Below, one piece after another: positions 252 to 19,923 of a stretch of DNA of 64,000 nucleotides. The notes under the pieces were generated by a model that saw nothing but the letters and a program-made list of their open reading frames with translations, made no database searches and was not told where the DNA came from. The position numbers were made by a program, and so were the translations under genes. The stretch is from an uncultured Methanosarcinales archaeon. Lineage in GTDB: Archaea; Nanobdellota; Nanobdellia; Woesearchaeales; ARS49. How positions within the stretch are numbered: position 1 is the stretch's first letter; every line of letters begins with the position of its first letter. The stretch covers positions 248,294 through 312,293 of the forward strand of contig CAZJXP010000001.1 in assembly GCA_964550175.1 (NCBI GenBank), in the 5' to 3' direction.

Positions 252-525
252 GCAATTCAAATTCTGGAAGCACGCGCCTGAGCAGTCTCCTGGACTGGAG
301 CCGTACGAGCCGCAAGGGATGCCCGGCATGCAGCCAATGGAGCCCGATCCTTCGTTAACTCAGAATAACTCGTTCCAGCAGATGGCGCAATTGACGCCCA
401 AGAGCGACAAGGATTTGGAGCTCGTGAATGCGAAACTGGACGTGATTAAGGCTCAGCTGGATAACATCATGCAGCGCTTGGATAAGATGGAACGGCAAGA
501 GTCGAAAGAGAAAGTCCGATGGTGA
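244..525 (+). CDS. small coiled-coil protein, hypothetical
   Basis: 93-aa ORF. The C-terminal half has heptad-like K/E/L-rich sequence (LELVNAKLDVIKAQLDNIMQRLDKMERQE). Overlaps the lspA start by 7 nt. Confidence 0.5.
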   Translation: MLEQFKFWKHAPEQSPGLEPYEPQGMPGMQPMEPDPSLTQNNSFQQMAQLTPKSDKDLELVNAKLDVIKAQLDNIMQRLDKMERQESKEKVRW

Positions 526-965
526 GAAAGTACTGGTTCTGGGTCATTGCGATTATCGTTGTCATGCTGGATCAGCTGACGAAAGCGATTGTCGTCACGA
601 AAATCCCGTTCAATACTTCGGTCGAAGTCCTTGGTTCTGTTCTTTCGTTCACGTCGGTGCACAACACCGGCGCGGGATTCGGGATACTGCAAGGGCAGAA
701 CTCATTGTTCATTTTGGTTGCGTTGGTCGCGATAATAGTCATTGTTTGCACCTTGCGGAAGACTTTAGAGGACCACCACACGACAATCTTTGTTGCTTTG
801 ATACTCGGTGGAGCTATCGGGAATTTGATAGATAGAATTCTTTACGGGTTTGTCGTTGATTTCATTGATTTTCACATCTGGCCCGCGTTCAACGTCGCTG
901 ACTCCGCTTTGTGTATTGGAGTTATTGGATTGATTTGGCTGTCGCTTATTGAGAAGAAGAAGTAA
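519..965 (+). CDS. lspA: lipoprotein signal peptidase (signal peptidase II)
   Basis: 148 aa with 4 TM segments. Conserved SPase II boxes VHNTGAGFG and FNVADSALCIGV. Confidence 0.85.
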   Translation: MVRKYWFWVIAIIVVMLDQLTKAIVVTKIPFNTSVEVLGSVLSFTSVHNTGAGFGILQGQNSLFILVALVAIIVIVCTLRKTLEDHHTTIFVALILGGAIGNLIDRILYGFVVDFIDFHIWPAFNVADSALCIGVIGLIWLSLIEKKK

Positions 966-2567: not shown

Positions 2568-3383
2568 ATGAACGTTCAAGATATTCTTCGCACAAACCAG
2601 CTCGAAATCAGCGCGACCGACACGCTGTCCAGCGTCTTCGGCAAGCTCAGCAAGGGGCACACGGAAGCGCTCGTCGTTGACGAAAAGGGACACTATGTCG
2701 GCATGCTCTCGAAACGCATGCTGTTGAAGAGCCGCATCGACGCCTCCATCACCAAGGCAAAGAACTACGTCATGAAAACGGCCACGTTGACGAACACGAC
2801 GACGCTGGAACGCGCGGCAGAACTCTTGAACGCGTCCGACACCCACGTCCTTCCAGTGTTGAACGGCGAAAAAGTCATCGGCATCTGCGGGGCAAGAGAC
2901 GTTTTGGCATCATTGCAATCAAACTTCGGCACGCGTAAGGCGATTGAATTGGGAAGCACCAAGCTCGTCGTGTTGCAAGAAGGCGACGCCATCGTGAAAG
3001 CACTTGCGTTATTGCGCGAAAAGCACATCGACCGAATCCCGGTCGTGGACAAGAACGGAAAGCTTTCGGGCATCATCTCCGTCATCGACATCCTCTTGCG
3101 ATACGGGTCCGGCACGCCGCACGGCGCGGTCTCGGGCAGAAACGCGAAGCAAGGCAAGACCTCGCACTCCGGCGGCGACGCGGGCGACCGGCCCGACTAC
3201 ACGCAGCTCCCGGTCTCGAACATCATGACGAAGATTGTCACCACGTGCTCGCCGAACGCGAAAGCGGCTGATGTGATTAAATTGCTGAACGACCAAGGAA
3301 TATCTTCGGTCATTCTTGTGCAGCAAGATTTGCCGGTCGGCATCGTGACGACGAAAGATTTGTTACGTGAGGTCACCAAGTGA
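2568..3383 (+). CDS. CBS-domain protein (tandem CBS pairs)
   Basis: 271 aa with repeated CBS-like segments (hydrophobic-x-V/I-x-D...G-I-I-T-x-D-L). Confidence 0.8.
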   Translation: MNVQDILRTNQLEISATDTLSSVFGKLSKGHTEALVVDEKGHYVGMLSKRMLLKSRIDASITKAKNYVMKTATLTNTTTLERAAELLNASDTHVLPVLNGEKVIGICGARDVLASLQSNFGTRKAIELGSTKLVVLQEGDAIVKALALLREKHIDRIPVVDKNGKLSGIISVIDILLRYGSGTPHGAVSGRNAKQGKTSHSGGDAGDRPDYTQLPVSNIMTKIVTTCSPNAKAADVIKLLNDQGISSVILVQQDLPVGIVTTKDLLREVTK

Positions 3384-4018
3384 GGAGAAAGAAGCTCACG
3401 TACGGCTGGGTCGGCGGCGTCGTGTTAGCCATCGTAATCTTAGCTATTGTGCAGACGCTTCCGGACGACGATTCTTCGGGAAAGCACTGCACCGACACGG
3501 ACGGAACGAACCCGTTTACGGTCGGCAACACGTACGACTGGCGCTCGGGCACGATGTTCCAAGACCGATGCATTGATTCCAAAACCGTTGAAGAGTTTTC
3601 TTGCTCCTACCCCGCGACGGATTTGCGCGGCAAGACCATGACGGCACTCGTCACGTGCAAGCACGGCTGCTACCAATCGATGTGCGGCACGCCGGACTTG
3701 GTCGCGACTGATTTCTTGATTTCGAAACAGCCGACAACCTCGGACGAATTCAAAATCACCTACAAGATATTCAACAATGGGAATGTTCCAGCTTCTGCAG
3801 TCGATGTCGACACGTATTTCGAGCCGTGCTACGGAATATTGATTGAGCCGGCAAAATCCGTCGACCCTGGCAAGAGCACGATGGCCACGTATTCCGTCAC
3901 GTGCAAATTGCCCGGCACGTTCAAGTTCACCAACATCGTCGACCCGCACGACATTCTGCAAGAAAGCGACGAAGCGAACAACCAACGGATCGATGTCGTG
4001 ACGGTAAGATTGCCGTAA
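3380..4018 (+). CDS. membrane-anchored extracellular protein with CARDB-like domain
   Basis: GTG start overlapping the CBS stop. N-terminal TM anchor. The C-terminal VDPHDILQESDEANNQ matches the CARDB signature (VDP.N.I.ESNE.NN). Confidence 0.7.
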   Translation: MRRKKLTYGWVGGVVLAIVILAIVQTLPDDDSSGKHCTDTDGTNPFTVGNTYDWRSGTMFQDRCIDSKTVEEFSCSYPATDLRGKTMTALVTCKHGCYQSMCGTPDLVATDFLISKQPTTSDEFKITYKIFNNGNVPASAVDVDTYFEPCYGILIEPAKSVDPGKSTMATYSVTCKLPGTFKFTNIVDPHDILQESDEANNQRIDVVTVRLP

Positions 4019-4019
4019 T

Positions 4020-4200
4020 ACGTTCTTAGTTAATTCTTTTAAACTATATATTCTAAAATGCTCACTATAGTTAATATGTTAATACTATATTGATATTAAC
4101 TAATAATCATAAAAGTAGCATATAATAACTAAATAAGTAGTATGTTAGTATCATAATACCGCAATATTTATAAAGGGAAATCGCAAAATGCCTTTATGAG
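4020..4200. promoter_or_regulatory. AT-rich intergenic region with imperfect direct repeats and a TATA-like box (tttataaa at 4167-4174) about 30 nt upstream of the 4201 start
   Basis: Seen directly: roughly 85 percent A+T, with repeated aagtag(c/t)at and taata motifs. Confidence 0.4.
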
Positions 4201-4446
4201 GTGTCATTAGTGGTCAAGCGCACGTACAAAGCACTTCGACCCATCATTCTCAAGGCGTTTGCAAAGGAGCAAAAGACGGTAAATCAAGTTGCTACTGAAA
4301 CCGGCATCAACTGGAAAACCGTCGACAATCACACCATCTACCTCACGGGACGAGGATTTCTGAAAGCGATTTTCATTTCACCATTTGTCAAGATTTACGC
4401 CATCACCGACAAGGGCATTGACGCGCTCAAGGGAGGACTTAAGTGA
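4201..4446 (+). CDS. small winged-helix DNA-binding protein (putative transcriptional regulator)
   Basis: 81 aa with an HTH-like core (TVNQVATETGINWKTVDNHTIYL) and wing (ITDKGIDAL). Paralogous in pattern to ORF 48949..49224. Overlaps glgA by 4 nt. Confidence 0.55.
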   Translation: MSLVVKRTYKALRPIILKAFAKEQKTVNQVATETGINWKTVDNHTIYLTGRGFLKAIFISPFVKIYAITDKGIDALKGGLK

Positions 4447-5648
4447 AAATCCTCATGTTCGGCTGGGAGTTCGCGCCGGTGTACTCAGGCGGGCTTGGCG
4501 TGGCTTGCGCTGGATTGGTCAAAGAACTCGTCGCGCAAGGGGCCGAAGTCACGTTCGTGTTGCCGCGGCTGCCGAAAGCGCTCGACGAATCCAAGATCAA
4601 CCTCATCGCGGCATCAGAGTACGGCAGCAAGGTGCGCATCAAAGTAGTCAAGAGCCTGCTCGTGCCGTATTCAAGCGCGTCGCAATACAAGGGACTGTAC
4701 AACCTCTACAAGTCCCGCAATCCCGGAGCCGCGCTGTACGGCGATGATTTGTTTGAGGAAGTCGCGCGCTACGCTGAGGCAGCGAAGAAAATCGCGCGCG
4801 AGGTGCCGCACGACGTCATCCACTGCCACGACTGGATGACCTACCAAGCGGGCATCGCGGCGAAACAGGTCTCAGGCAAGCCCTTGGTGATGCACGTCCA
4901 CGCGACGGAATTTGATAGGACTGGCGGAAGCGGCAATGCGGCCGTAAACGCGATCGAACGGCTCGGATTCACGAAGGCGGACAAAGTCGTCGCAGTAAGT
5001 CAATACACCAAGCAAAAAGTCATGGACAATTACCACATTTCCGCAAAAAACATCGTCGTTTCGCACAACGGCAGCGAGCCGAAGAAGACGGTTTCGAAAC
5101 TCGACGACAAGTCCCGCATCGTGCTGTTCCTGGGACGCATGACCGTGCAGAAAGGACCGGACTGGTTCCTCAAGGCAGCCGAAAAAGTGCTGGAAAAAGA
5201 GCCGAATGTTACTTTTGTGATGGCCGGCTCGGGCGACATGGAGCCCGCGATCATCGAACGCGCTGCCGCTGCTGGAATTGCGGACAAAGTTCTCTTCACC
5301 GGATTCCTGACGGGCGCGGATTTGGACAAGGCCTACAAAATGGCGCAAGTCTACGTCATGCCAAGCATTTCTGAGCCGTTTGGCTTAACTGCGCTGGAAG
5401 CGATGGGGAACGGAACTCCGACGATTATTTCAAAACAGTCCGGCGTGTCCGAAGTCGTGAAGCACTGCCTGAAGGTCGACTTCTGGGACACGAACGAAAT
5501 GGCGAACAAGATACTTGGCGTGCTTTATTACAAAGACTTGCAGGACGAATTAGGGCTCAAAGGCGCGGCCGAAGTCAAGGAGATCACGTGGAAGAAGCCC
5601 GCGCACCAGATGCTCGATTTGTACGGCAAGCTCATGAGGGCACGATGA
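4443..5648 (+). CDS. glgA: glycogen synthase, archaeal GT5/GT4 GlgA type
   Basis: N-terminus MKILMFGWEFAPVYSGGLG is the archaeal GlgA KVGGL-type motif. C-terminal GT-B E-x7-E region (SISEPFGLTALEAMGNGTP). Confidence 0.85.
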   Translation: MKILMFGWEFAPVYSGGLGVACAGLVKELVAQGAEVTFVLPRLPKALDESKINLIAASEYGSKVRIKVVKSLLVPYSSASQYKGLYNLYKSRNPGAALYGDDLFEEVARYAEAAKKIAREVPHDVIHCHDWMTYQAGIAAKQVSGKPLVMHVHATEFDRTGGSGNAAVNAIERLGFTKADKVVAVSQYTKQKVMDNYHISAKNIVVSHNGSEPKKTVSKLDDKSRIVLFLGRMTVQKGPDWFLKAAEKVLEKEPNVTFVMAGSGDMEPAIIERAAAAGIADKVLFTGFLTGADLDKAYKMAQVYVMPSISEPFGLTALEAMGNGTPTIISKQSGVSEVVKHCLKVDFWDTNEMANKILGVLYYKDLQDELGLKGAAEVKEITWKKPAHQMLDLYGKLMRAR

Positions 5649-6826
5649 ACGTCTGCTTCTACTTCCAAATCCACCAGCCGTTCAGATTGAGACGGTATCA
5701 GGTGTTCGACATCGGCAAGAATCACGCGTATTTCGATGACGCGAAGAACGAGGAAGTGCTGCGAAAAGTCGCGGCGAAATGCTACGTTCCCGCGACGACG
5801 TTGTTGTTGAAGCTATTGAAGGAACACAAGGAGTTCAAGGTGGCGTTTTCCATAACGGGAACGGCTCTAGATCAACTTGAAGCGTATGCGCCTGAAGTCA
5901 TCACGCTGTTCAAGAAACTGGCCGCAACGGGCCGAGTTGAATTTCTGAGCGAGACGTCGCACCACAGCTTAACATTCCTTTTTGATAGAAAAGAGTTCAA
6001 GGAACAAGTAAGTAGCCACAAGGCACGCATCAAGAAACTGTTCGGAGTTACTCCGACCGTGTTCAGGAACACGGAGCTCATTTACACGAACGAGCTGGCT
6101 AAGGTCGTTGAAGAATTAGGGTACAAGGCCGTGTTGATGGAAGGAGCCGACCATGTGCTGCAAGGCAAAAGCCCGAACCACACCTATTCCGCCTCGGGAA
6201 CGAAAACGAAATTGCTGCTCAAGAACTACAAATTGTCAGATGATTTAGCATTCCGGTTCTCGGACAAGAAATGGGAAGGATACCCGCTGACGCCCGGCAA
6301 ATTCGCGTCATGGATCGAGGCGTCCGGCGGCGAGACCGTGAATTTGTTCATGGACTACGAGACGTTCGGCGAACATCAATGGGAAGACTCAGGTATTTTC
6401 AAATTGCTTGAAGGACTGCCGGCTGCGCTGTTGAAACGCAAGATCGGATTCCACCTGCCTTCCGAAGTCGCGACGCTGAAGCCCGTCGGCACGCTTGATG
6501 TCAAGTCTCCAATGTCATGGGCGGACGTCGAACGGGATGTGTCCGCATGGCTGGGCAACAACATGCAGAACGCCGCGGCGCAGCACCTGTATTCGCTGTT
6601 ACCAATTATCAAAGAGACCGGTGACAAGAAATTGCTTGAGGACTGGCGCAAATTGAGCACGAGCGACCACTTCTACTACTTGTGCACCAAATGGTTCGCC
6701 GACGGCGATGTTCACAAATATTTCAATCCTTATGAAAGCCCGTACGACGGGTTCATCGCGTTCATGAACGTGCTGAATGACATGAAGCAGCGCGTACAAC
6801 CCCAAGCATGGGTGACAGTGAGGTGA
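5645..6826 (+). CDS. glycoside hydrolase family 57 (alpha-amylase or alpha-glucan-acting enzyme)
   Basis: N-terminal GH57 signature CFYFQIHQPFRLRRY. The ATG at 5645 overlaps the glgA stop (ATGA). The longer ORF start at 5588 was rejected. Confidence 0.8.
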   Translation: MNVCFYFQIHQPFRLRRYQVFDIGKNHAYFDDAKNEEVLRKVAAKCYVPATTLLLKLLKEHKEFKVAFSITGTALDQLEAYAPEVITLFKKLAATGRVEFLSETSHHSLTFLFDRKEFKEQVSSHKARIKKLFGVTPTVFRNTELIYTNELAKVVEELGYKAVLMEGADHVLQGKSPNHTYSASGTKTKLLLKNYKLSDDLAFRFSDKKWEGYPLTPGKFASWIEASGGETVNLFMDYETFGEHQWEDSGIFKLLEGLPAALLKRKIGFHLPSEVATLKPVGTLDVKSPMSWADVERDVSAWLGNNMQNAAAQHLYSLLPIIKETGDKKLLEDWRKLSTSDHFYYLCTKWFADGDVHKYFNPYESPYDGFIAFMNVLNDMKQRVQPQAWVTVR

Positions 6827-6830
6827 CATC

Positions 6831-7124
6831 GTGAAAGGAAAAACAACGCCGTTATTGCGGGATTGCCCTGAAAAACTTCAGTTCAAGACCGCGCACGGCC
6901 AGGTGCTACGGAACTACGTGGACCTGATTGACGGACTGAAACGAATGGAGGATTCGACGTTTCGGCACCACGTGAACGAAGGAAGGAATGACTTCCGGAA
7001 CTGGGTGCTGCACGTGTATTCGGATGAGAAGCTGGCGAAAGACTTCGAGCACAATCCGACTCGACTCGGAATGGCGCAGAATACTTCACGTCGATTGAAG
7101 AATCTCGCTATGGAGCATGGATGA
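6831..7124 (+). CDS. hypothetical protein, paralog 1 of a three-gene tandem family
   Basis: GTG start 5 nt after the GH57 stop, with RBS aggtga. Shares the motif L..Y.DLIDGL..M.D.TF..HVN.GRNDF..W with the next two genes. Confidence 0.6.
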   Translation: MKGKTTPLLRDCPEKLQFKTAHGQVLRNYVDLIDGLKRMEDSTFRHHVNEGRNDFRNWVLHVYSDEKLAKDFEHNPTRLGMAQNTSRRLKNLAMEHG

Positions 7125-7133
7125 TGGTTTTTG

Positions 7134-7164
7134 ACGTTGCTCTCCCCGGCAGATTTTGTAGAGT
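7134..7164. repeat. partial interspersed-repeat copy (GACGTTGCTCTCCCCGGCAGATTTTGTAGAG)
   Basis: Matches the 5' block of the repeats at 2361 and 41491. Confidence 0.5.
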
Positions 7165-7296
7165 CGTTACGCAAATAGTTAACAACGACTCAAAATCTGC
7201 AAGGACGAACCAACGACGCGACAGCAAACGTGCGGGAACAGCAACGCAACAAGCTTTAAAAACAGCAAAAATAATGACTCAGCAAAGAGGTGTGGA

Positions 7297-7596
7297 ATGA
7301 AGGCACAAGCGACTCCGAAGACAACCGTCCTAGGCAGCGCTCCCGAAGGAAAGGCCTTTGTTCTTCATGATGGACGAAAGTTAAGGACGCTCTACGAACT
7401 CATTGATGAATTGGAGACAATGAACGATGATACGTTCAAGTCATTTGTTCACCAAGGCAAGAACGATTTTGCTTCTTGGATTGAAGGCGTGTTCCAAGAG
7501 AAAACATTAGCTGACGAGCTGCGCAAAACTCCCTCTCGTACTGACCACCAGAAAATCATACTCAAACATCTTGTTCGATTATTGAGGAAACCATGA
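7297..7596 (+). CDS. hypothetical protein, paralog 2 (shared TF..HV..GKNDF..WI domain)
   Basis: 99 aa. RBS gaggtg before the ATG. Conserved L.TLYELIDELETMNDDTFKSFVHQGKNDFASWI. Confidence 0.6.
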   Translation: MKAQATPKTTVLGSAPEGKAFVLHDGRKLRTLYELIDELETMNDDTFKSFVHQGKNDFASWIEGVFQEKTLADELRKTPSRTDHQKIILKHLVRLLRKP

Positions 7597-8246
7597 GCCA
7601 CAAATCGTTACGTGACGTAAACGACCCCTTCTTCGTGAAGGACGGAACGGCGCTAAAGAGCCTTTACGATTTAGAACGCGAACTGCGCAACATGAGCGCG
7701 GAACAGTTCTCGCACCACGTGAATTCGGCGAAGAACGACTTCTACAGCTGGATCCACCACACCATCAACGATCACGACTTGTCATTGAAGCTTTCGAAGA
7801 TAAATAATCAAAAGAAGATGGCGGACATCGTCGAGAAGCACATACTGTCGTTGGAGCAGGCGCAGACTACTAAGAAAGCCGCCGTGCAGAAAAAAACAAT
7901 CTCGAGCTTAAGGCGGATTGCGTCTAAGCCCGTCGCAAAGGTCGAGCTGGATTTGGCGCCGCTGAAGCACGAGCGCAGATACGAATCATTGCTTAATCCC
8001 GCGCCCGTCCCGATGTCGGAACTGCCGAGCGTCGACTCTGTCGAAGACAGGCTACGGTCGAAATTAGCCGCGCTGCCGAACACGACCGTGACGATTACGG
8101 AGCCGCAAGTTGAAGCCGCTCAAAACATAAGTGCGCCTGAGACCGTCGAGGAACAGTCGAACCTGATGCGGCACTTAGTGCATTACTCGTTAGGACTGAT
8201 GGCGGGAATACTGGCAGGTTTGGTTTTGGCGAAGTTCTTTATCTGA
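7593..8246 (+). CDS. hypothetical protein, paralog 3 with C-terminal TM anchor
   Basis: ATGA overlap with paralog 2. The N-terminal 70 aa share the family domain (LKSLYDLERELRNMSAEQFSHHVNSAKNDFYSWI). C-terminal TM (LGLMAGILAGLVLAKFFI). Confidence 0.6.
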   Translation: MSHKSLRDVNDPFFVKDGTALKSLYDLERELRNMSAEQFSHHVNSAKNDFYSWIHHTINDHDLSLKLSKINNQKKMADIVEKHILSLEQAQTTKKAAVQKKTISSLRRIASKPVAKVELDLAPLKHERRYESLLNPAPVPMSELPSVDSVEDRLRSKLAALPNTTVTITEPQVEAAQNISAPETVEEQSNLMRHLVHYSLGLMAGILAGLVLAKFFI

Positions 8247-8703
8247 GCTTTCGCTCAAGCTCCTTTCTCAATAAATTGATGTGCAGCTCAAACTTCAGCT
8301 TAAACGACTTCCAGTCATCGTACTTCAACAACTGACCTCTATAATTTATCGCGTTCCGTTTTAGCCTGATTGTCTCCAAGAATTCCCAATCGACATCCAA
8401 TGACGAGTGCTTGAAACAGAGATAGGCGTTCTTGCACTGATGGTTGTCGGCAGCGATGCCGTCGAACAGCAGATACGCCTCGATAAGCCCCCGCAATGAC
8501 TCGTAATGGTCCCTGAACACGAACGTCCAGTCCGTGCTGTCCTTCGGGATATCCGCTGACTTGCGGTTGATGAACTCCAATCCTTTTTCCGCGACGAGCT
8601 TCAACGACCTGATGAACTCGATATCAATGGACTTTTCTTTTATGCTTCCCGTGCTGATGCAGAACTCGTACGTGGCGTCAAGATTGTCGATCGTAAGCTT
8701 CAC
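8239..8703 (-). CDS. HEPN-domain protein (toxin partner of HEPN/MNT pair)
   Basis: 154-aa helical protein immediately downstream of, and 4-nt overlapping, the MNT gene. Contains an R-x4-6-H-like region (RLKRNAINYRGQ). Confidence 0.65.
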   Translation of the reverse strand: MKLTIDNLDATYEFCISTGSIKEKSIDIEFIRSLKLVAEKGLEFINRKSADIPKDSTDWTFVFRDHYESLRGLIEAYLLFDGIAADNHQCKNAYLCFKHSSLDVDWEFLETIRLKRNAINYRGQLLKYDDWKSFKLKFELHINLLRKELERKLR

Positions 8704-9251
8704 GCGACCTCTGCGACGTCATTGATTTGGCCTTTTACAACATAGCCGTTGATGACATTGGCCATCAGTCCGGTCTTTATGCCGTCGATTTCTTTCTTGC
8801 TTTTGAAGACGTGCAGCTCGATTCTTTTCTTGAGCTTACGCTCGAATTCGCGCTTGTCGAAACCAGAACTGTCGCCGAAAATAAAAACGTCAACATCAGA
8901 CTCTTTGTACCAGTCGCCTTTCACCATGCTGCCGAACAATATGACGGTTTTCGCGGACTTTAACGACAATAACTTCGGGATGAGCCCGCTGTTGTGCAGC
9001 TGCTCCAAAGCGTAGACTCTCTTAAGTGATTGATAATAGGGATTGTTCGCGCCAGCGGTGTAATGCGGAAATCTGCCCTTTACTTTCACGTAGATGAGCG
9101 CGCCTTCGTCGACGCACTTGTTTAGCCACTTGATTGCGACCGCTTTCGTTACCTTCGCTTCTTTGATTATCTCCTTGAGATGCCATTCCTTCAGCGGGCT
9201 GTTTTCGAGGATTAATTTCACCACTGATGATTCCTTACTTGGACTCGCCAT
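8700..9251 (-). CDS. minimal nucleotidyltransferase (MNT) with N-terminal wHTH
   Basis: Pol-beta-type NTase motif GSMVKGDWYKESDVDVFIF. Confidence 0.8.
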   Translation of the reverse strand: MASPSKESSVVKLILENSPLKEWHLKEIIKEAKVTKAVAIKWLNKCVDEGALIYVKVKGRFPHYTAGANNPYYQSLKRVYALEQLHNSGLIPKLLSLKSAKTVILFGSMVKGDWYKESDVDVFIFGDSSGFDKREFERKLKKRIELHVFKSKKEIDGIKTGLMANVINGYVVKGQINDVAEVA

Positions 9252-9463
9252 AATTGGTATGACTGAGATAGACTATTTAAAGGTTGCCCTTGTAATGGTC
9301 GATCACGATATTTGATGTGAATATATAACCACACAAACTAGAACCGCAAATCTTCCGCTTTTTCCGGAAAGTTTTCGGTTTTTCTCGAGCAAACGTTATG
9401 AATTCTGTTTGGTTATGTTTGTTCATGAGCGAAACTTTAATAAGTAAGCCCTGCCTTACCGAA

Positions 9464-9718
9464 GGCATGGAGCTCGTGCATATGTCAAGCAAAGGCCAGA
9501 TAGTGATTCCGCTGCAGGTGCGCAAGCACCTGAAGCTCACGCGCGGATCACGGCTCGTGCTGGTGGAACAGAAAGGGATGGTCGTTCTCCGAAAGGAAGA
9601 CGACGACACTATCCTGACGCCGGCTGACAAAAGAGCGATTGACCGTGCACGTCGAGACATTCGAGAAGGAAAAGGTATCACTCTCGACCAACTCGAAAAA
9701 GAACTCGGCTATCGATGA
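9464..9718 (+). CDS. AbrB/SpoVT-MazE family antitoxin
   Basis: SSKGQIVIPLQVRKHLKL is a swapped-hairpin AbrB fold signature. A TATA-like ctttaataag lies about 25 nt upstream. An alternative start is at 9482. Confidence 0.65.
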   Translation, partial: GMELVHMSSKGQIVIPLQVRKHLKLTRGSRLVLVEQKGMVVLRKEDDDTILTPADKRAIDRARRDIREGKGITLDQLEKELGYR

Positions 9719-9966
9719 CCATAAGCATTCTGCCGGCAGCAGAAAAGTTTCTCCGCAAATGCGAAAAAGAGCTATTTCTTCGCCTACGCGAACGCATTTA
9801 TTCCCTTGAACATAATCCGTTTCCTCCTGATTGCGAACGCCTAAAAAGCAAAGAAAAAATCTTCAAGGTACGCGTTGGCGACTACAGGATATTCTATGAC
9901 TACTTCTCTGAAACACTCATCATCTTGAGAATCAGAAAACGGGATAATGCCTACTTGAATGACTAA
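9715..9966 (+). CDS. relE: RelE/ParE-family toxin
   Basis: 83 aa. KVRVGDYRIFYDY...LIILRIRKRDNAY matches the RelE/StbE core. ATGA overlap with the antitoxin. Confidence 0.75.
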   Translation: MTISILPAAEKFLRKCEKELFLRLRERIYSLEHNPFPPDCERLKSKEKIFKVRVGDYRIFYDYFSETLIILRIRKRDNAYLND

Positions 9967-12311
9967 CGCTTGTTCGCAAAGACAAATTGGTAGTCCTTGC
10001 CTTCTAACAACGTTATGAGCGCGTTCTCGTACGGGAAGAACGTGTAGGTCGCGGATGGTAATGAATCTAAGTTTATTCTTTCCTCGTTCTGGATTTGGCT
10101 TATTACCGTGGCGTTTGTGGCTTCTAAGAAGTTCAATACTGGCTTTCCTGTGGCTACGAAATCCTTGAACTCCCAACGGTTCGTTCCCTTGTTGACGAAG
10201 AACCTGTACTCCATCATGAACGTGGTTTGGTCCTTGCCGAGAATTGCTTTTACTGTTGGACTGCCGACGTTTTCAACTGTAACACCGGTAAACGCCTTGA
10301 AATTGTCGATGCACTTGATTGTTCTGGCTTTCGTATCCTCTCCTACGTCTAATTCTATTCTTTCTAATGGTAATTGGTTGTCAACCCCTTGGAGGTAGTC
10401 GAAGGCGGTTGTTGGCGTGGTTTGGAACGGGGTTTGCAAGGCGAGATGACCTCCTTGGAGGCCTAATACTTTCAAGGTGTCTTCGCCCGCGAGTTTAAGA
10501 CAGTTGTTGACGTACTCTTGCACGGTTGATTCTGATTTTACTACAATATGGTCTGGGACTGTGATGAAAAGCAATAACATGGCTACGGCTAAGATTACGA
10601 CGCCTAAGAGCATGAAGATGGTTAATTGGCCGCGGGATGAGCGTTTACTTTTTTTACCACTGCTGACCCCGGCAGATTTTGAGTTAGTGGCTCGATTGAG
10701 CTTTGAATGATGGCCTAAACGCGTCCAATCTTGGCGGTAAAAAGTCTTGCCGGGGCGCGACATGGCAACTCCGGCTAATATCACCGCGAACGAAGCGAAC
10801 AGCAACGCGTGAACTGAAGTGAGATGCTTGATTAATTCTGCAATCTTACTGTGTCCTGCGGGGTAGACGGTCAAGACAACCCCATTCCTCTGGTAATCAA
10901 CCGTGTTGTCGTCCACTTTCATGACCGAAGGGCTGTACGCGGTGCGGTAAGACTTGATCCAGGACTGCGTGAGCTTTTCTTTGGTTATCTTGTCGTTGAT
11001 GGTGAGCAAGCGTTCGGTTGACGTTCCATGCTGGATGGCCTCTTCGATGGTTATGTAGTTGCTGACGACCGTCTTGTACGGAGGGGCGTCGTTCAGGATC
11101 AAGACGTCGTTGATGAACGCGTTGTCCTTGTCGAACGTCAGGATGGCTTTCGCGTCCTTGTTGCCCGTTGTGAAGAACGTGACCAATCCTTCCGACTTGC
11201 CGTCCTTCTTTATTTGTGGCTTGTTGAGGTCGACGATTCCCCTGATTTCCAACGCGTGGTTCGGAAGGTCGAAGATCGAGCAGGACTTGCAGGACTTCAC
11301 TTCAGGCGGGAACGCGTCGGAGTCGGACTTTCTCAGGAAGATATCGTGATTGTCCTGCCAGGCACGGATGCTGAAGTCTTTAGTTGCGTCCTTCGCATCA
11401 TAGGTGTACAACGTGACGGGCTCCATATGGATGTGCTGCATCCCGTCAGTTCTTGAGACTTCGACCTTTGCGGAATTGTTAGATTCTACTGTTTCCGTTA
11501 TTCCGTTCTTTTCCAATTCGATTTGGACATCTATTAGGTCTAATACGGTTGTTGTGGTGCTCTTTGAAATGACTAAAGAGGAATCATCTGAGAGAGACTT
11601 GAAATCGTACTGGTTCGTCGAACAGTCCTTGATCTTGAATTCGGAATCCTTATCCGCGTCGATGGTCACGTCGGTTTTAGCCGTAATCTTCGCGTTTTCA
11701 ACATCTTCCATGTAAACGCAGCTCGCCCAGACGGAATCTGCTTTCTTTACGTCAATCGTCTTGTCGCAATAATTGACTTTATCGAGCTTAGTTGCGATAG
11801 TGTCGGTTTCTACGAGAGAATCGGCTGTGTCGGCGGTTAAACAACCATTTTCGTATTTTACATTCTTGCCGTTGGTGATGACTATGGGGCCTTGCTGGAG
11901 GGAACCGACGGAAGCGATTGAGTAGCCGCCGCCTTGGACAGAAACGCCCGTTACATCAGCAGCCTTGCCAGAACCTTTCGGAGTATCCATACTTTTTGCG
12001 TATGTTAAATGACCACTTGCATCAACTTTCCCGCCAACAACATGCGTGAAAACATTACCATCAGCATCCGTAAATTTGTCCGTATCAACATTATAGGATC
12101 CATCAGGATTTTTGGTTGCCGTACCACCTTCATAAGTGGCGCCATTGGCATCTTTAGCCATTGTGTCAGGAGTAATATCTTGTTTCACACCAGCATCGCC
12201 ACCTCCACCCGGACCATCACTTGGAGGAGGAGTTGTTCCATCAGCGATTACTGCGACTGAAAGTAAAAGTAGAACAACAAGTAGTATAGGGATAACACCT
12301 CTTTTACTCAT
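9963..12311 (-). CDS. large secreted surface protein, with signal peptide and internal hydrophobic anchors; an interspersed repeat lies in frame at 10643-10746
   Basis: N-terminal signal MSKRGVIPILLVVLLLLSVAVIADG. A TM segment plus basic tail (LLFASFAVILAGVAMSRPGK) is typical of an archaeal C-terminal anchor. It is followed by repeat-encoded sequence and then a second TM segment. The 782-aa ORF may really be two genes, roughly 10750..12311 and 9963..10640. Confidence 0.55.
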   Translation of the reverse strand: MSKRGVIPILLVVLLLLSVAVIADGTTPPPSDGPGGGGDAGVKQDITPDTMAKDANGATYEGGTATKNPDGSYNVDTDKFTDADGNVFTHVVGGKVDASGHLTYAKSMDTPKGSGKAADVTGVSVQGGGYSIASVGSLQQGPIVITNGKNVKYENGCLTADTADSLVETDTIATKLDKVNYCDKTIDVKKADSVWASCVYMEDVENAKITAKTDVTIDADKDSEFKIKDCSTNQYDFKSLSDDSSLVISKSTTTTVLDLIDVQIELEKNGITETVESNNSAKVEVSRTDGMQHIHMEPVTLYTYDAKDATKDFSIRAWQDNHDIFLRKSDSDAFPPEVKSCKSCSIFDLPNHALEIRGIVDLNKPQIKKDGKSEGLVTFFTTGNKDAKAILTFDKDNAFINDVLILNDAPPYKTVVSNYITIEEAIQHGTSTERLLTINDKITKEKLTQSWIKSYRTAYSPSVMKVDDNTVDYQRNGVVLTVYPAGHSKIAELIKHLTSVHALLFASFAVILAGVAMSRPGKTFYRQDWTRLGHHSKLNRATNSKSAGVSSGKKSKRSSRGQLTIFMLLGVVILAVAMLLLFITVPDHIVVKSESTVQEYVNNCLKLAGEDTLKVLGLQGGHLALQTPFQTTPTTAFDYLQGVDNQLPLERIELDVGEDTKARTIKCIDNFKAFTGVTVENVGSPTVKAILGKDQTTFMMEYRFFVNKGTNRWEFKDFVATGKPVLNFLEATNATVISQIQNEERINLDSLPSATYTFFPYENALITLLEGKDYQFVFANKR
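10643..10746. repeat. complete MITE-like repeat copy located in frame inside ORF 9963..12311
   Basis: TTTACTTTTTTTACCACTGCTGACCCCGGCAGATTTTGAG...CCAATCTTGGCGGTAAAAAGTC, with an internal hairpin GCTCgattGAGC. Confidence 0.6.
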
Positions 12312-12344
12312 AATTAAAGAAACAGACGAGACGTTATTTAAAGC

Positions 12345-13460
12345 TTACTTCTTCTCATACTCAACTTTGGACCATCGTTCTTTCTCAGTTCGTTTATTTT
12401 GTGAGCGCCAAACAAAGGAACCATTGGGTGCTGTGAGGTTCGTACTTGCCCAATATTTACAAATGTCACGCGCCCACGCTTTAACATATTTTGTTTCTTG
12501 AGGGGCACCTGCAAGAACGTCAAGAACCTTTATCTTACCATCATTTTTCTCAGGTGTTTCACCTTTTACGACATCATATTTAGCAACAATGAACAAGGAA
12601 GGTTCAGCAATAGAACCAAACTGTTTCATGACCTCCTTCAGATCATCTTTGACCGCAGTGTTCTCCGCATCATACACTTTAAGCGGCACACCCAAAACCT
12701 TACTCGCATACTTTGCAAGAATGGCAGAACGAATGGATAAAATTGTTGCATTATCTTTTCCATTAAAATCACACATTAATACAAGACTTTTATCATCTTT
12801 CAATTCAGCAATTTCTTTTGCAAATTCTCCTTTCCCGATATAAGACACTTTAGCATCACTAGCAAAATCTTTGTCATCAAAAACTTCTTTCGCGGTTTTG
12901 TATTTTGCTTCAAGTTTTTGGGCTAAATCATCGGTAAAATCATCGATATTCACTTCTTTAACATCTGCTTGTATTTTCGGGTCTTCTGCGTATACTCGTG
13001 GTGTGTTTAGTCCTGAGAATCCGAATGCGGTGGTTGTGAGTATGGCTGCGTAGGCGATGTTGTTACGTGCTTTGTGCCAGAATGATTTCTGTAAAGGCAC
13101 TTGTTCTGCGTTTTGTATTGCGTTGTCGATGCTCATGATGATTCTTGCCTTGTACGTTTCGTACTGTTTTGCCCGCTTTTGCCCTTTTTGGTCGGGCAAT
13201 CCTAATGACAAATGTTCTTTGAATAGTGTGATGTCTTGCCTGAACACGTCTAGCCAAACAACGGCTGTTTCTGCGTGTTTGCGAGCCGTTCCGGTGACGT
13301 TCTGTGTTACCGTGACTGCTGCAGTGCGCAACAGCTCAATCTCCTGCAAAACGGTTTGAGCGTCTTGCAAGGTCATGTTCGCAAACCGCAAATCTCGGCG
13401 GCGCGAACTTAATGTTTTGACTCCGTTGCTGACCGACTTGAGCTGGCGAAACACATCCAT
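12345..13460 (-). CDS. hypothetical membrane-associated protein
   Basis: 371 aa with one TM segment (IAYAAILTTTAFGFSGL) and no recognisable family. Confidence 0.5.
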   Translation of the reverse strand: MDVFRQLKSVSNGVKTLSSRRRDLRFANMTLQDAQTVLQEIELLRTAAVTVTQNVTGTARKHAETAVVWLDVFRQDITLFKEHLSLGLPDQKGQKRAKQYETYKARIIMSIDNAIQNAEQVPLQKSFWHKARNNIAYAAILTTTAFGFSGLNTPRVYAEDPKIQADVKEVNIDDFTDDLAQKLEAKYKTAKEVFDDKDFASDAKVSYIGKGEFAKEIAELKDDKSLVLMCDFNGKDNATILSIRSAILAKYASKVLGVPLKVYDAENTAVKDDLKEVMKQFGSIAEPSLFIVAKYDVVKGETPEKNDGKIKVLDVLAGAPQETKYVKAWARDICKYWASTNLTAPNGSFVWRSQNKRTEKERWSKVEYEKK

Positions 13461-13654
13461 GTCAAGATGGACGTATTACGACTATATAAAACAAATCAGT
13501 ATATAATTGTTATGACTGTTTTCGTCGATGATGGACATGAAAACAGCAGAATTCGCCTTTTTGCCCCTTATAAATGACCTTAAAATCTATATAAAATATA
13601 TAAATTATAAGGACAATTAATATATACTTCCTTTAGCTCTATCTTTACTACTTA
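13461..13654. promoter_or_regulatory. AT-rich divergent promoter region with several TATA-like boxes
   Basis: ctatataaaaca, ttataaatga and atatataaatta lie between divergently oriented genes. Confidence 0.4.
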
Positions 13655-14290
13655 ATGGTGGTGTTGAGGGAAGACAAAATGAGCTTAACGTCCATTGTTC
13701 AAAACACCATACGTAAAACAAGCCCGGTAATCGCCAGACGACTGTGCGACCGATCTCTCGCAAAGGCGCGTTCTTCTGCTAAGGAGTATGTTCGCCATAA
13801 AGATGAATTCCGGCTCTACCTCCAATTCTGTGAACGCGCCCAACCGTCAAGATATGATGACTGGCAAATGAATTACAATATCCGCAAATACCAAGAAACT
13901 GCACAAGACCTTGTCGAACGCACCAACCACAAATATGCCCGCGCAAGAGCGTGGGAAACACGCCAAGAGGTCGCGGAAGAACGCCTCGTCTTTTATACAG
14001 GCACGGCACACGTTCTCGCAAATTGCCCGGTCGAACGCCTCCTCCATTACCGCACGCTCGTTGAAGATGTGCGCAGTATCGCTCCCACTTCAACAGTGCT
14101 CGGCAAAGTAGACGAAAAAATCATTGGAGAAGGCACCTGCGACAAACACGACACGCAAGACCACATTACCATGTTCAAAACAGCAGGCTATGAAAAGGAA
14201 GCAAAAGCGCTCGCGGCGCTCTACGCAGAACAAATCATGCACGACCAACCACAACGCGCATGGGAATTCATGAAACAGACCATGGCTTAA
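13655..14290 (+). CDS. hypothetical protein
   Basis: 211-aa ORF with no recognised motifs. An alternative start is at 13679 (MSLTS). Confidence 0.5.
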   Translation: MVVLREDKMSLTSIVQNTIRKTSPVIARRLCDRSLAKARSSAKEYVRHKDEFRLYLQFCERAQPSRYDDWQMNYNIRKYQETAQDLVERTNHKYARARAWETRQEVAEERLVFYTGTAHVLANCPVERLLHYRTLVEDVRSIAPTSTVLGKVDEKIIGEGTCDKHDTQDHITMFKTAGYEKEAKALAALYAEQIMHDQPQRAWEFMKQTMA

Positions 14291-14337
14291 ATCTGAATAA
14301 CCACCACAATAAAACATAAAATCACGAGAGGATAAAT

Positions 14338-15297
14338 ATGAAAACAAGATTTCCGGGAATCTCAGCATTGGTGAGGTGTAAAGATGAAGGCGATTCGGTA
14401 TACGCAAGTTTATTTTCAATAAAAGATCTTGTTGATGAAGTTGTCTTTGTTGACAATGAATCGGTGGATAATAGCATTGCCGAAGCTGAAAGATTTAAGA
14501 ACGATCATTTCAAAGATAAAAACTTCATTATTCGCCCTTATGCACACAGTGTTGCAGGAGGCAATCATCTTGCGGACATGAATAATTTTGCCTTATCCTT
14601 GACTTCAACCGAGTGGGTTATGAAGTGGGATGTTGACACTATTGCGTACACTGCGGGAGAAAACTCCATCTTAAAGCTCAAAGAACGCGTATTCGCTAAC
14701 GGTTCTCCTGTGGACATTATAAGATACAGTTTTTTTAATCTCTGGGGTGATTATTTCCATTGCCTGCAAGCAAGATTCGGCGATCCTGAATATGGCCCGA
14801 CTGGTTGCGGATTGGAGTTGCAAGGTTGCGAAAAAAGACTGTATCGGTATGATGATGATATTCATTTTGAAATGGAACGTTATGCTGAACACTTTTGGGA
14901 AGCTATGCGAGTACCTCTTACCTATAAAGAAATGCAGTTAAGTATTGTGCCTGGCGTACACTTGCAGACGGTTAAACCTTCAAGCTTGGTCGGTCGTAGA
15001 TTTTTTCTTACGCGCTTTACACCAGGTGAGCGAGAAAAATATGGAAGTTTTACGAAATTTGTGCAACATGAGCTACGAGAAGCAAATTGTCCTTCTCTTG
15101 AGCTTTTCGGCAAAAAACTCATTATTGATGAAGTGAATGTACGTGGTACAAAGTTCAAACAGCCGCATCCTGATACAATGTACCAATTGGGTTTGATGAA
15201 AGAACTCCCATATGAACTCATTTTTGATGAAACTAACGTCTGCGTTGATAGAAAAGAACGAAATGCAGCACACGATTACTTGAGGGATGGAGAATGA
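14338..15297 (+). CDS. glycosyltransferase family 2-like (GT-A fold)
   Basis: N-terminal ISALVRCKDEGDSV...VVFVDNESVDNS fits the GT2 pattern (I..TYNE...VDDGSTD). AT-rich codon usage. Confidence 0.7.
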   Translation: MKTRFPGISALVRCKDEGDSVYASLFSIKDLVDEVVFVDNESVDNSIAEAERFKNDHFKDKNFIIRPYAHSVAGGNHLADMNNFALSLTSTEWVMKWDVDTIAYTAGENSILKLKERVFANGSPVDIIRYSFFNLWGDYFHCLQARFGDPEYGPTGCGLELQGCEKRLYRYDDDIHFEMERYAEHFWEAMRVPLTYKEMQLSIVPGVHLQTVKPSSLVGRRFFLTRFTPGEREKYGSFTKFVQHELREANCPSLELFGKKLIIDEVNVRGTKFKQPHPDTMYQLGLMKELPYELIFDETNVCVDRKERNAAHDYLRDGE

Positions 15298-16388
15298 ACT
15301 TATTATTTTGCCTTCATTCATTTAACATTAATGGAGTATTAAACCAGAATCTTTCATTAGCAAAACACATTCTGAAGAAACTGCCTGATGTGCGCATTAC
15401 GGTCATTGCACCAACAAAGAAAGAGGGGATGCTTGCATATCTCGCATTAGGAATTGATGCGAAAGCGATAAATCCTGCAACCGATAAGGATGGGTTCAAT
15501 ACTTTGGCAAATGGGTCACATGACGCTATTTTATTTGAGTCGTTATTTTCATTAAATTATTATGGTAGTTTATTGGCCGGCAATCAAAAAAAATCTGTAT
15601 TGCACATTCATGAAGAGTTGCCTCTCACCCATAAAAGCGACTTATGGAATGTTGATGCAAAATCAATAGATGATTATTTTTCAGAACTGGTCAATTCTAC
15701 AGTTATATTTTCGGGTCAAAAAAGTCAACTCCATTATTCAAAAAAGCTCTTGGAATACAAGATTCAATCGCATGTTATCAATAATGTGGTTGATGTTGAT
15801 AAGTTTAAAGCAATAAAAAGGAGGGACGATGGCGCATTTAATATTGTTCAAGTAGGGACAATCTATGAGCGCAAAGGAGCAATACAAACATTCGAAGCAT
15901 TCAACATATTATTGAAAAAATATTGCATTGAAAATGCAAACCTCGTCTTCGTAGGGGCACGTAAAGGAAAACCTGCCGAAGAAGATTATGTGCAGCAACT
16001 AGTCAAAAGAACAAAGCTGCTGCACTTGGAAGATCAGGTTAAAATAGAACCGGTAATTACTGAACCAAGCAAATATTACGAAAATGCTTCGGTTGTAACA
16101 CTTCATTCTCAATCAGAATCTTACCCCACAGTATTTCTTGAAGCATGTTATTTGGGAATTCCGTTTGTGGGAAGTGTTGTTGGATGTTCTCAAGAGATGG
16201 AACGCAAATACGGAAACGCACTATTATTTCCCATTGGGGATATTGAAAAACATGCACAATGTTTGCACCAAATTTACGAATCTCAATTTCCTGAAAAGAA
16301 AATGACCCGGGAACAGTTAGAAGTACATTTTGAAAATAATCACGATAAAATGATAACTCGGTTGCTCTTGAAAAATGGAAACTCTTGA
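15294..16388 (+). CDS. glycosyltransferase family 4 (GT-B fold)
   Basis: C-terminal ESYPTVFLEACYLGIPFVGS is the E-x7-E GT4 motif. Confidence 0.75.
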   Translation: MNLLFCLHSFNINGVLNQNLSLAKHILKKLPDVRITVIAPTKKEGMLAYLALGIDAKAINPATDKDGFNTLANGSHDAILFESLFSLNYYGSLLAGNQKKSVLHIHEELPLTHKSDLWNVDAKSIDDYFSELVNSTVIFSGQKSQLHYSKKLLEYKIQSHVINNVVDVDKFKAIKRRDDGAFNIVQVGTIYERKGAIQTFEAFNILLKKYCIENANLVFVGARKGKPAEEDYVQQLVKRTKLLHLEDQVKIEPVITEPSKYYENASVVTLHSQSESYPTVFLEACYLGIPFVGSVVGCSQEMERKYGNALLFPIGDIEKHAQCLHQIYESQFPEKKMTREQLEVHFENNHDKMITRLLLKNGNS

Positions 16389-17658
16389 AGAAAAAATAGA
16401 CTTGCGCATAGAGCAGGAAACAGAATTGGTATTCCAAGCGTATATTACGAATGACGTCATGACCGGCATGGCAAGAGACGAAGTGACTCAATTAGCAAAG
16501 AAGTCGAAGAATAGGGTTCTTGCTGATAGTGGTGTAATGATGCAAATCATGCAAGAAGCAGAAGAAGCATACATAAAATCTTTAGCAAATGTGAACGAAG
16601 AACTCGCTGAAGAATATGTCCGCATTAAAAAAAGTGCTTGTCCGATTGAAGCTAAAAAAACAATATTTTCTGAATGCAAAAAAACATTAGATGATGTCAT
16701 TTTCAAAAGAAAATTCATTGAAGCCAGAATTAGTCTGAATCTTGATCGTGACGCTCAGCACATTAAATCTTCGATTAAACAAGTACTGTTGCGTGATTAT
16801 AGGGACCTCGTGAGTGGTTTAACAAGGAGTTACGCATCGATGAACAGTGATGGTGAAGCAAACAAATTTATTGAGTTTTTACTTGATTTTAGTCAAGACA
16901 GCACGGGTATTTTATACGAACGTGAATTTAGACGAATCCTTGCTGACAAAATGAAACCGGCAGATATTTTGATTTACAAATGCTTGCGGTTCACCCATGA
17001 TGAAGGTCATCTTAATATCTGTCCTCATTTAGACGATTATCGCACTCAGGATATCAATGGAAAGCCAGTTATGTTTAAAGGAGCTTCAGACACGTATCAA
17101 CTCAAAAAAATATTGTATCTTGCCAAGCACCTGAAAAAATATTCCGGAAGTAAACAACCAATTCTGATTGTGGCTGATGGTGATATGTTTAAGTATGGCC
17201 CTGAAAAATATGCCGAGTTCAGCAGCAAAATACACGAGTATTTAGTAGAGATACGAGCTTATTGCCCCGCCTTAGATGTACGTTTAGAAACTGAATATTT
17301 CGACAACCAACAAGAATACAAAGAACTTGAAAAACGGGTTAAAAGTTCAATTCTACAGCACCAAAACGACTATATCGCGCCTGAAGAAACCCAAAGAATT
17401 ATTGAAGATTACGCGTCACGATTCCGTGCTATGCTTAAAGACTGGACGATTGAAAAAAATCAATATTACTCGGTTACGTCTATTTCCCGTAACATCGCTC
17501 AGGGAATGTTTTTATCCTATGAAAAACGTAAGGCAATTGTAGTTGTATTCAATAATCCTGATAGTACTGGCGCAAGATTTAATCTGAAAACGGAAGAGAA
17601 AGTGCCATTTATCGGGTATCCTAAGTTGTCATCCAAAGTGGTGAATAACAATGACTGA
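16375..17658 (+). CDS. hypothetical protein (427 aa) within the AT-rich glycosyltransferase island
   Basis: Long ORF with no family motif recognised by eye. Overlaps both neighbours. Confidence 0.55.
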   Translation: METLEEKIDLRIEQETELVFQAYITNDVMTGMARDEVTQLAKKSKNRVLADSGVMMQIMQEAEEAYIKSLANVNEELAEEYVRIKKSACPIEAKKTIFSECKKTLDDVIFKRKFIEARISLNLDRDAQHIKSSIKQVLLRDYRDLVSGLTRSYASMNSDGEANKFIEFLLDFSQDSTGILYEREFRRILADKMKPADILIYKCLRFTHDEGHLNICPHLDDYRTQDINGKPVMFKGASDTYQLKKILYLAKHLKKYSGSKQPILIVADGDMFKYGPEKYAEFSSKIHEYLVEIRAYCPALDVRLETEYFDNQQEYKELEKRVKSSILQHQNDYIAPEETQRIIEDYASRFRAMLKDWTIEKNQYYSVTSISRNIAQGMFLSYEKRKAIVVVFNNPDSTGARFNLKTEEKVPFIGYPKLSSKVVNNND

Positions 17659-18436: not shown

Positions 18437-18457
18437 TATATTCAAATACTTGAAATA

Positions 18458-19871: not shown

Positions 19872-19923
19872 AATTCACCTGTTTATATATAAGCTCGGAT
19901 TTTATAAGGCTGTTGCCTTAGGA

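Follow-up and report, generated by a model that had tools for sequence, protein, structure and literature searches.

We analyzed a 64,000-nucleotide (nt) stretch of the archaeal contig CAZJXP010000001.1 (assembly GCA_964550175.1, positions 248,294 to 312,293 of the forward strand), which is called the window here and to which all coordinates refer. Our subject is a row of three small genes, designated D1, D2, and D3, that stand directly behind the genes of a GlgA-like glycosyltransferase and a family 57 glycoside hydrolase (GH57) and that are present in NCBI without protein names. The features of the three open reading frames (ORFs) are as follows (aa, amino acids).

6831-7124, plus strand: D1, 97 aa with a GTG start, a soluble single-repeat OrfY/DUF5752-like protein, conserved block at about 6882-7040
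7297-7596, plus strand: D2, 99 aa, a soluble single-repeat OrfY/DUF5752-like protein, conserved block at about 7357-7515
7593-8246, plus strand: D3, whole ORF, 217 aa
7593-7886, plus strand: N-terminal repeat domain of D3, conserved block at about 7629-7787, presumably cytoplasmic
7887-8186, plus strand: variable linker of D3 with a lysine-rich start, weakly conserved in an alignment of D3-type proteins
8187-8246, plus strand: C-terminal transmembrane helix (tail anchor) of D3 with the stop codon, from Kyte-Doolittle hydropathy

The first-pass annotation of this DNA had proposed that the three genes are paralogs, and this holds: BLASTP gave E values of 2e-18 for D1 and D2 (37% identity across 81 aa), 8e-11 for D1 and D3, and 6e-14 for D2 and D3, and the phmmer scores between the paralogs (34-49 bits) were far above the best of 3000 shuffled copies (8-18 bits). 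The similarity does not stem from low-complexity sequence, which had been named as a possible source of error, because the residue entropy of the proteins is about 4.0 bits. All three share the block F..(D)G..L..L.eL...L..M....F...V...(K)NDF..W......L, and no further copy of the repeat was found within the 64-kb window. D1 and D2 are basic, with isoelectric points of 9.3-9.5. The third gene does carry the long linker and the C-terminal anchor noticed at first sight, since residues 199-217 of D3 (SLGLMAGILAGLVLAKFFI) form a hydrophobic stretch of 19 residues with a Kyte-Doolittle mean of 2.06, and the small-residue pattern GLxxGxLxGL is kept in this helix in the alignment of D3-type proteins.

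The gene order in the window is winged-helix gene-GlgA-GH57-D1-(172 nt)-D2-D3, and the remaining features of this apparent operon are listed below.

4019-4200: very AT-rich spacer that holds the TATA-like box, from sequence inspection
4167-4174, plus strand: TATA-like box TTTATAAA, 27-34 nt 5' of the first operon gene, from sequence inspection
4201-4446, plus strand: putative winged-helix protein, 81 aa, first gene of the operon, with a weak Sso10a-family match
4443-5648, plus strand: GlgA-like GT-B glycosyltransferase of the glycogen or starch synthase type, from Pfam
5645-6826, plus strand: GH57 glycoside hydrolase, 393 aa from the ATG at 5645, Pfam Glyco_hydro_57 with E 2e-74
7125-7296, plus strand: D1-D2 spacer, 172 nt, with the TATA-like TTTAAAAA at 7255-7262 and the Shine-Dalgarno-like AGAGGTG before the D2 start

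The genes are co-oriented and tightly packed, as had been described. The winged-helix gene overlaps the glgA start by GTGA, and the glgA stop overlaps the GH57 start by ATGA; four bases separate the end of the GH57 stop (6826) from the D1 start (6831), and the ORFs of D2 and D3 again share an ATGA overlap. The internal genes of the operon have Shine-Dalgarno-like motifs in front of them; before each of the three D starts this is a GAGG motif, judged by eye. The box TTTATAAA is a candidate promoter element, and its spacing fits a leaderless or near-leaderless archaeal transcript; a scan for bacterial-type promoters and terminators was uninformative because the host is an archaeon. At 172 nt, the D1-D2 spacer of the window is longer than that of close relatives (26-84 nt); their D2 is extended at the N terminus by a lysine-rich segment, which is missing from the D2 of the window. 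From the TATA-like TTTAAAAA in this spacer, D2 and D3 may possibly have a promoter of their own in this genome. A 59-aa ORF at 7121-7300, which covers the spacer, was rejected as a gene; it gave no family match in a Pfam scan, and its frame differs from that of D2.

The two enzymes upstream are recognizable. GlgA matches Pfam Glycos_transf_1 (E 2.5e-34) and Glyco_transf_5 (E 5e-25), its best solved relative is the GlgA of Pyrococcus abyssi (3fro, E 7.5e-19), and the NCBIfam glgA models match it below their cut-off. The GH57 protein belongs to a subfamily of about 400 aa that is 50-69% identical across loci and has invariant RNTEL and MDYETFGEH blocks; a sequence search found no solved structure for this subfamily. 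The conserved HQP, RNTEL, and MDYETFGEH blocks correspond to the catalytic Glu and Asp regions of GH57 enzymes, and the GH57 enzyme of the window is therefore probably active. The 81-aa protein encoded by the first gene matches the Sso10a family with E 5.8e-4, below the cut-off, and its homologs occupy the same position in relatives, where they bear weak HTH_5, HTH_45, or HTH_24 Pfam marks. Just 5' of the operon, at 2568-4018 on the plus strand, lie genes for CBS-domain and CARDB-domain proteins, whose order is kept in four related loci (L003, L004, L007, and L008).

The shared block had been regarded as unassignable in the first-pass annotation. We found that it is one repeat of Pfam DUF5752 (PF19027) and of the solved protein OrfY, that is, of a family without a known function rather than of a well-known ubiquitous domain. 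DUF5752 is the top Pfam family for D1, D2, and D3 alike, and many of their homologs carry precomputed PF19027 matches. The matches of the D proteins map to two parts of the 208-position DUF5752 model (about 40-110 and 160-190), and the conserved motif maps on the profile to about 55-80 and 160-190. Two-repeat relatives span model positions 14-189 in one stretch and exceed the Pfam gathering cut-off of 23 bits (P0066, 36.1 bits; P0074, 46.6 bits; P0088, 48.0 bits), and this continuous coverage indicates that the DUF5752 model is a tandem of the single unit seen in D1-D3. A profile of 45 family sequences matched OrfY (4cso_A) with E 2.7e-6, the next PDB matches having E values above 0.2, and it aligned the NDFxxW motif with OrfY residues 63-88 and 166-212, that is, with two repeats about 103 residues apart. 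The D repeat shares the fold of OrfY, and from the matching repeat spacing OrfY itself appears to be a DUF5752 member. When a two-repeat relative was searched against PDB with phmmer, 4cso was missed, only the profile being able to reach it, and a search with a 47-aa OrfY fragment, aimed at the canonical OrfY and TreT neighborhood, found no candidate. Weak Pfam matches to PARP_reg, DUF7893, and DUF3563 (E 0.01-0.15) were dismissed as chance.

D2 was modeled with AlphaFold2 from 45 homologs; the model is confident, with a predicted local distance difference test score (pLDDT) of 89.4 and a predicted template modeling score (pTM) of 0.80. It has a short beta-hairpin followed by helices, with a small beta-bridge, made by the conserved V(H)..(K)N, immediately preceding the NDFxxW helix. 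As modeled, the repeat is a small unit in which a beta-hairpin is combined with helices and which carries the motif (H)HVN-x3-NDF-x2-W.

The family is large. An exhaustive hidden Markov model (HMM) search gave 4,965 clusters at 50% identity with E ≤ 1e-3, of which 3,898 had E ≤ 1e-10, and many of the matches have two or three repeats. Relatives that could be placed are nearly all DPANN archaea, and the nearest homologs of the D proteins are labelled Woesearchaeota or Nanoarchaeota. Many bins with the operon are labelled "uncultured Methanosarcinales" (L009, L015, L018, L046, L051, L054, L059, and others), and a few others carry the labels Chloroflexia, Dehalococcoidaceae, or Gammaproteobacteria; such bins are probably mislabelled or mixed rather than occurrences outside DPANN.

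To describe the genomic context, we scanned one genome of each GTDB species for the motif, with a 9-sequence alignment because the 45-sequence alignment was too diverse. The scan gave 195 confirmed matches, and the counts that follow refer to the best 80 of these 195, which are nearly all from DPANN bins. Homologs of both GlgA and GH57 lie directly upstream on the same strand in 45 of the 80 loci; only one of them is present in five loci, mostly at a contig end, and both lie on the other strand in two. Of the 45 glycogen loci, 26 have two repeat genes behind GH57, 13 have three, and six have one, and at least 26 of the 45 encode a repeat protein with a C-terminal transmembrane helix, normally as the last gene. 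The usual layout downstream of glgA-GH57 is a soluble repeat protein plus a tail-anchored one. The winged-helix protein was found by phmmer in 18 of the 45 loci (L009-L088) and also in the four complete close-relative loci L003, L004, L007, and L008. The same arrangement is kept in many related genomes, and the transcript shared with the glycogen genes that had been suggested at the outset is plausible.

A check for the same triad beside glgA, which had been recommended, showed that close relatives keep the full order winged-helix gene-GlgA-GH57-D1-D2-D3. D1, D2, and D3 each have a clear one-to-one ortholog in L003-L008, with the order unchanged; own-type orthologs score 113-140 bits for D1 and D2 (D1, 132-140 bits in L003-L008) and 92-97 bits for D3, versus 26-58 bits for the other types. 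These differences imply that the triplication is old and fixed, and the earlier description of the genes as locally expanded is misleading, each of them having its own orthologs in other Woesearchaeota. It looks as if a soluble and a tail-anchored repeat protein form the widespread core, with D1 as a later addition. In two further loci (L169 and L170), the repeat gene lies within a longer operon of the order winged-helix gene-GlgA-GH57-D-GT3 glycogen synthase-GalP_UDP_transf-GDE_C. This seven-gene glycogen operon (2291-9992 in L169/L170) encodes a GT3 (eukaryote-type) glycogen synthase besides its GT5-like GlgA, and its single repeat gene stands between the GH57 and GT3 genes.

The less biased direction is to start from the enzyme, and we sampled 80 metagenome loci found via GH57, of which 74 were testable. 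A repeat gene directly follows GH57 in 28 of the 74, in one of them as a fusion. GlgA is located upstream of GH57 in 53 of 62 such loci, which identifies GlgA-GH57 as a glycogen-metabolism core.

The repeat also occurs fused to the enzyme. In five proteins (L028, L063, L083, L086, and the metagenome locus L099), the repeat forms the C-terminal 100 residues of GH57, and the fused module stands exactly where D1 begins in the window; two of the first four loci are labelled Aenigmatarchaeota. The five proteins fall into three groups that are only 52-62% identical to each other, which implies that the fusion has been kept over a long divergence. Besides, a 280-aa protein (P0062) consists of a D2-type repeat, a D3-type repeat, a linker, and a transmembrane helix, and is thus a natural D2::D3 fusion. 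By the usual gene-fusion argument, these proteins suggest that the repeat physically associates with GH57 and that D2-type and D3-type proteins do so with each other.

These findings bear on the proposal of the first-pass annotation that such small paralogs are regulatory, immunity, or anti-sigma-like modules. If the D proteins were an immunity, toxin-antitoxin, or anti-sigma-like module that merely adjoins the glycogen genes, their small size, tandem arrangement, and single membrane-anchored member would fit, as would the two toxin-antitoxin-type pairs just downstream. We consider this highly improbable, as even divergent genomes keep the genes behind GH57, and in some lineages the repeat is part of the GH57 protein itself. 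Moreover, no relative was found in 50,697 phage records, 72,556 plasmids, or IMG/VR contigs; PADLOC gave only two marginal matches for D3 (AbiEii and PDC-M59C, E 0.003-0.004), dismissed as chance, and none for D1 or D2; and the downstream pairs stand apart from the D genes, being encoded on the other strand or farther away. Archaea are also not known to have sigma factors, which counts against the anti-sigma version. A regulatory role in a wider meaning of the term may still apply to the D proteins.

The downstream genes themselves are as follows. A nucleotidyltransferase (NTP_transf_2/Polbeta; PADLOC PDC-M05A, E 9e-14) and an overlapping 154-aa partner without a family match occupy 8239-9251 on the minus strand; the pair looks like an MNT-HEPN-type system, converges on the end of D3, and also follows the D genes in the relative L005. 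A MazE-like antitoxin (E 1.1e-5) and a ParE toxin (E 3.7e-8), encoded at 9398-9966 on the plus strand with a 4-nt overlap, form a type II toxin-antitoxin pair. At 9963-13460 on the minus strand, there are two large ORFs of 782 and 371 aa without a Pfam match, the former with hydrophobic segments and a long Thr/Asp/Lys-rich region; their counterparts in L005 (739 and 370 aa) lie in the same place. The G+C content is 0.38-0.42 at about 12000-20000, a region that includes a Glycos_transf_1 gene (L001 annotation), versus about 0.50-0.55 elsewhere, and this region may be an acquired island. Near the other end, the window encodes an LspA lipoprotein signal peptidase II (519-965, plus strand; Peptidase_A8, E 9.7e-39), a bacterial-type enzyme on an archaeal contig, and aIF-1A (1919-2281), which marks the organism as an archaeon.

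Our preferred explanation, for which we consider the chances about even, is that D1, D2, and D3 are non-catalytic, partly membrane-anchored accessory or tethering partners of GlgA and GH57. The D genes would be co-transcribed with glgA and the GH57 gene from the promoter upstream of the small winged-helix gene. The repeat domains would then pair with one another, like the two repeats within one OrfY chain, and dock onto GH57, possibly also onto GlgA, and the tail-anchored D3 would fix the assembly to the membrane on its cytoplasmic side. Such physical binding and membrane placement might localize or modulate glycogen synthesis or remodeling and so affect the activity of the enzymes. It is also conceivable, and in our view somewhat unlikely, that the OrfY/DUF5752 repeat is a dedicated docking module for enzymes that form glucans and glucosides. 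DPANN archaea would then have a split, membrane-anchored version of it, in which the soluble D1 and D2 and the tail-anchored D3 together assemble GlgA and GH57 into a membrane-bound glycogen-synthesizing complex.

Several observations weigh against the tethering explanation or the family assignment beneath it. D1, D2, and D3 stay below the gathering cut-off of DUF5752 (14.7, 20.9, and 19.0 bits, respectively), and each has one repeat instead of two tandem repeats per chain, two-repeat and fused forms occurring among relatives (e.g., P0062 and P0063); because of both points, we regard the three proteins as a variant related to the family and not as canonical members. A Foldseek search did not recover 4cso, which we take as a failure of sensitivity, the domain being small and helical and the relationship being supported by two independent methods. 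An AlphaFold prediction of the D2::D3 fusion P0062, made without an alignment, had a pLDDT of 44 and was uninformative on pairing of the repeats. Among the GH57-found loci, 46 of 74 have no repeat gene after GH57 even at E ≤ 10; the nine next genes scanned among them encode GH15, GDE, GT3 glycogen synthase, GH13 amylase, and two unrelated proteins, a major facilitator superfamily transporter and DUF4962/heparinase. The repeat genes thus appear to be a lineage-restricted accessory and not an obligatory partner of GH57. In the repeat-anchored sample, neither GlgA nor GH57 is present in 17 of the 80 loci, although each has 3 kb or more of sequence upstream (11 further loci could not be judged), and the 17 have no recurrent neighbor, no family occurring in more than 3 of 94 neighboring genes. 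Finally, among the larger proteins sampled, the repeat is fused to KaiC-type ATPases, to HerA/DUF87 ATPases and CarboxypepD_reg domains, and to coiled-coil proteins. Its presence in these unrelated fusions and in the 17 non-glycogen loci makes it a general module rather than a glycogen-specific one.

The fused architectures deserve a record of their own. Among the proteins examined (P0065, P0066, P0074, P0079, and P0089, and further P0083, P0088, P0072, and P0105), the repeat ends coiled-coil proteins of 410-540 aa with an N-terminal (V)PDELPPL(A/V)ED motif, and it is joined to KaiC-type ATPases or to HerA/DUF87 ATPases, the latter with many CarboxypepD_reg domains. All of these architectures are undescribed.

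Alternatively, the repeat could be a sensor of a small ligand or glucan, which would bind a sugar, a nucleotide sugar, or an alpha-glucan via the invariant HHVN-x3-NDF-x2-W and couple the signal to the attached partner: GH57 here, TreT in Thermoproteus, and KaiC- or HerA-type ATPases elsewhere. This reading is compatible with the attachment idea, and we think it unlikely. Conservation is highest at polar or aromatic residues (H, H, N, N, D, F, and W), which lie in one loop plus the short beta-bridge between model helices 2 and 3; the enzymes to which the family is attached all handle glucose polymers or nucleoside diphosphate (NDP)-glucose, and fusion to regulatory ATPases fits a sensor module. 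However, D2-type proteins often lack the HH and sometimes the D of NDF. Known carbohydrate-binding modules (CBMs), moreover, are mostly beta-sandwiches and not small helical domains, which also counts against a sensor; the Pfam scan of the D proteins returned no CBM family, and the modelled fold is helical.

The label of the solved structure is a further point against tethering partners, since the PDB depositors of 4CSO named it "OrfY protein, transcription factor". By analogy, D1-D3 would be DNA-binding regulators of the glycogen operon, with the anchored D3 sequestering or releasing its soluble paralogs, and the basic character of D1 and D2, the lysine-rich N-terminal tails of D2-type orthologs, and the lysine-rich linkers of D3-type proteins agree with such a role. 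We nevertheless judge it decidedly unlikely. The first gene of the operon already encodes a small helix-turn-helix-like protein, which we counted in favor of the D proteins not being its regulator, and three paralogs and a membrane anchor exceed what one operon needs. Fusion to the C terminus of an enzyme and to ATPases would be unusual for a DNA-binding domain, no DNA-binding fold was recognized in the D repeat, and no publication backing the PDB label was found in the literature searched.

We return to the tethering explanation in comparing the locus with known systems. OrfY of Thermoproteus tenax (PDB 4CSO) and DUF5752 resemble D1-D3 in the repeat with NDFxxW, and neither has an assigned function. 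They differ in architecture: OrfY/DUF5752 chains of about 200-216 aa have two repeats each, whereas the window encodes three separate one-repeat proteins, of which D3 is tail anchored, a feature not seen for OrfY. According to Kouril et al. (2008, Arch Microbiol 190:355), the T. tenax orfY gene reportedly lies upstream of the gene for the unidirectional trehalose synthase TreT, and this TreT-OrfY cluster is said to be conserved in many archaea, with no function given to OrfY. If so, OrfY and the D proteins would both adjoin an NDP-glucose-using GT-B glucosyltransferase; the partners in the window are, however, a GT5-like GlgA and GH57 of glycogen metabolism and not TreT of trehalose metabolism, so the neighborhood is not of the TreT type. 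The GH57::repeat fusions (Aenigmarchaeota type) are closer to the window, with the same GH57 subfamily, the same repeat, and the same place after GlgA, in surroundings of glycogen genes that include GDE_C and GT4. In these loci the repeat is covalently attached to the GH57 C terminus, and is not followed by a repeat gene of its own or a tail-anchored paralog, whereas D1 of the window is a separate gene.

The literature searched did not mention DUF5752 or PF19027, and neither OrfY nor DUF5752 appears in a review of prokaryotic alpha-glucan enzymes from 2024. With the OrfY/DUF5752 family already known, what is new here is its conserved association with a glycogen operon, the GH57 fusions, and the tail-anchored paralog. 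GH57 and GlgA are thereby the first concrete, testable partners for a family that has a solved structure and a Pfam entry. Even if tethering should fail, the assignment is a clean annotation upgrade for several thousand "hypothetical proteins".

A precedent for operon-encoded partners that act by complex formation in archaeal sugar metabolism is found in T. tenax, in which the trehalose enzyme TPSP is activated when such a partner joins it in a complex (PMC3634074). That partner is a GT4-fold protein unrelated to the OrfY repeat. Eukaryotes have non-catalytic proteins that tether glucan enzymes or granules, namely, Stbd1 (genethonin-1) and plant PTST, which are built from CBM20 or CBM48 beta-sandwiches and coiled coils. 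Their likeness to the D proteins would lie only in the proposed tethering logic, with no relationship in sequence or fold. If the tethering explanation is true, it would show how very small, host-dependent archaea organize storage-glucan metabolism at the membrane. Should the repeat prove to be the docking module of a glycogen-synthesizing complex, this would be the first function for the family since OrfY was described in 2008, and the complex would be a prokaryotic counterpart of the eukaryotic glycogen- and starch-tethering proteins.

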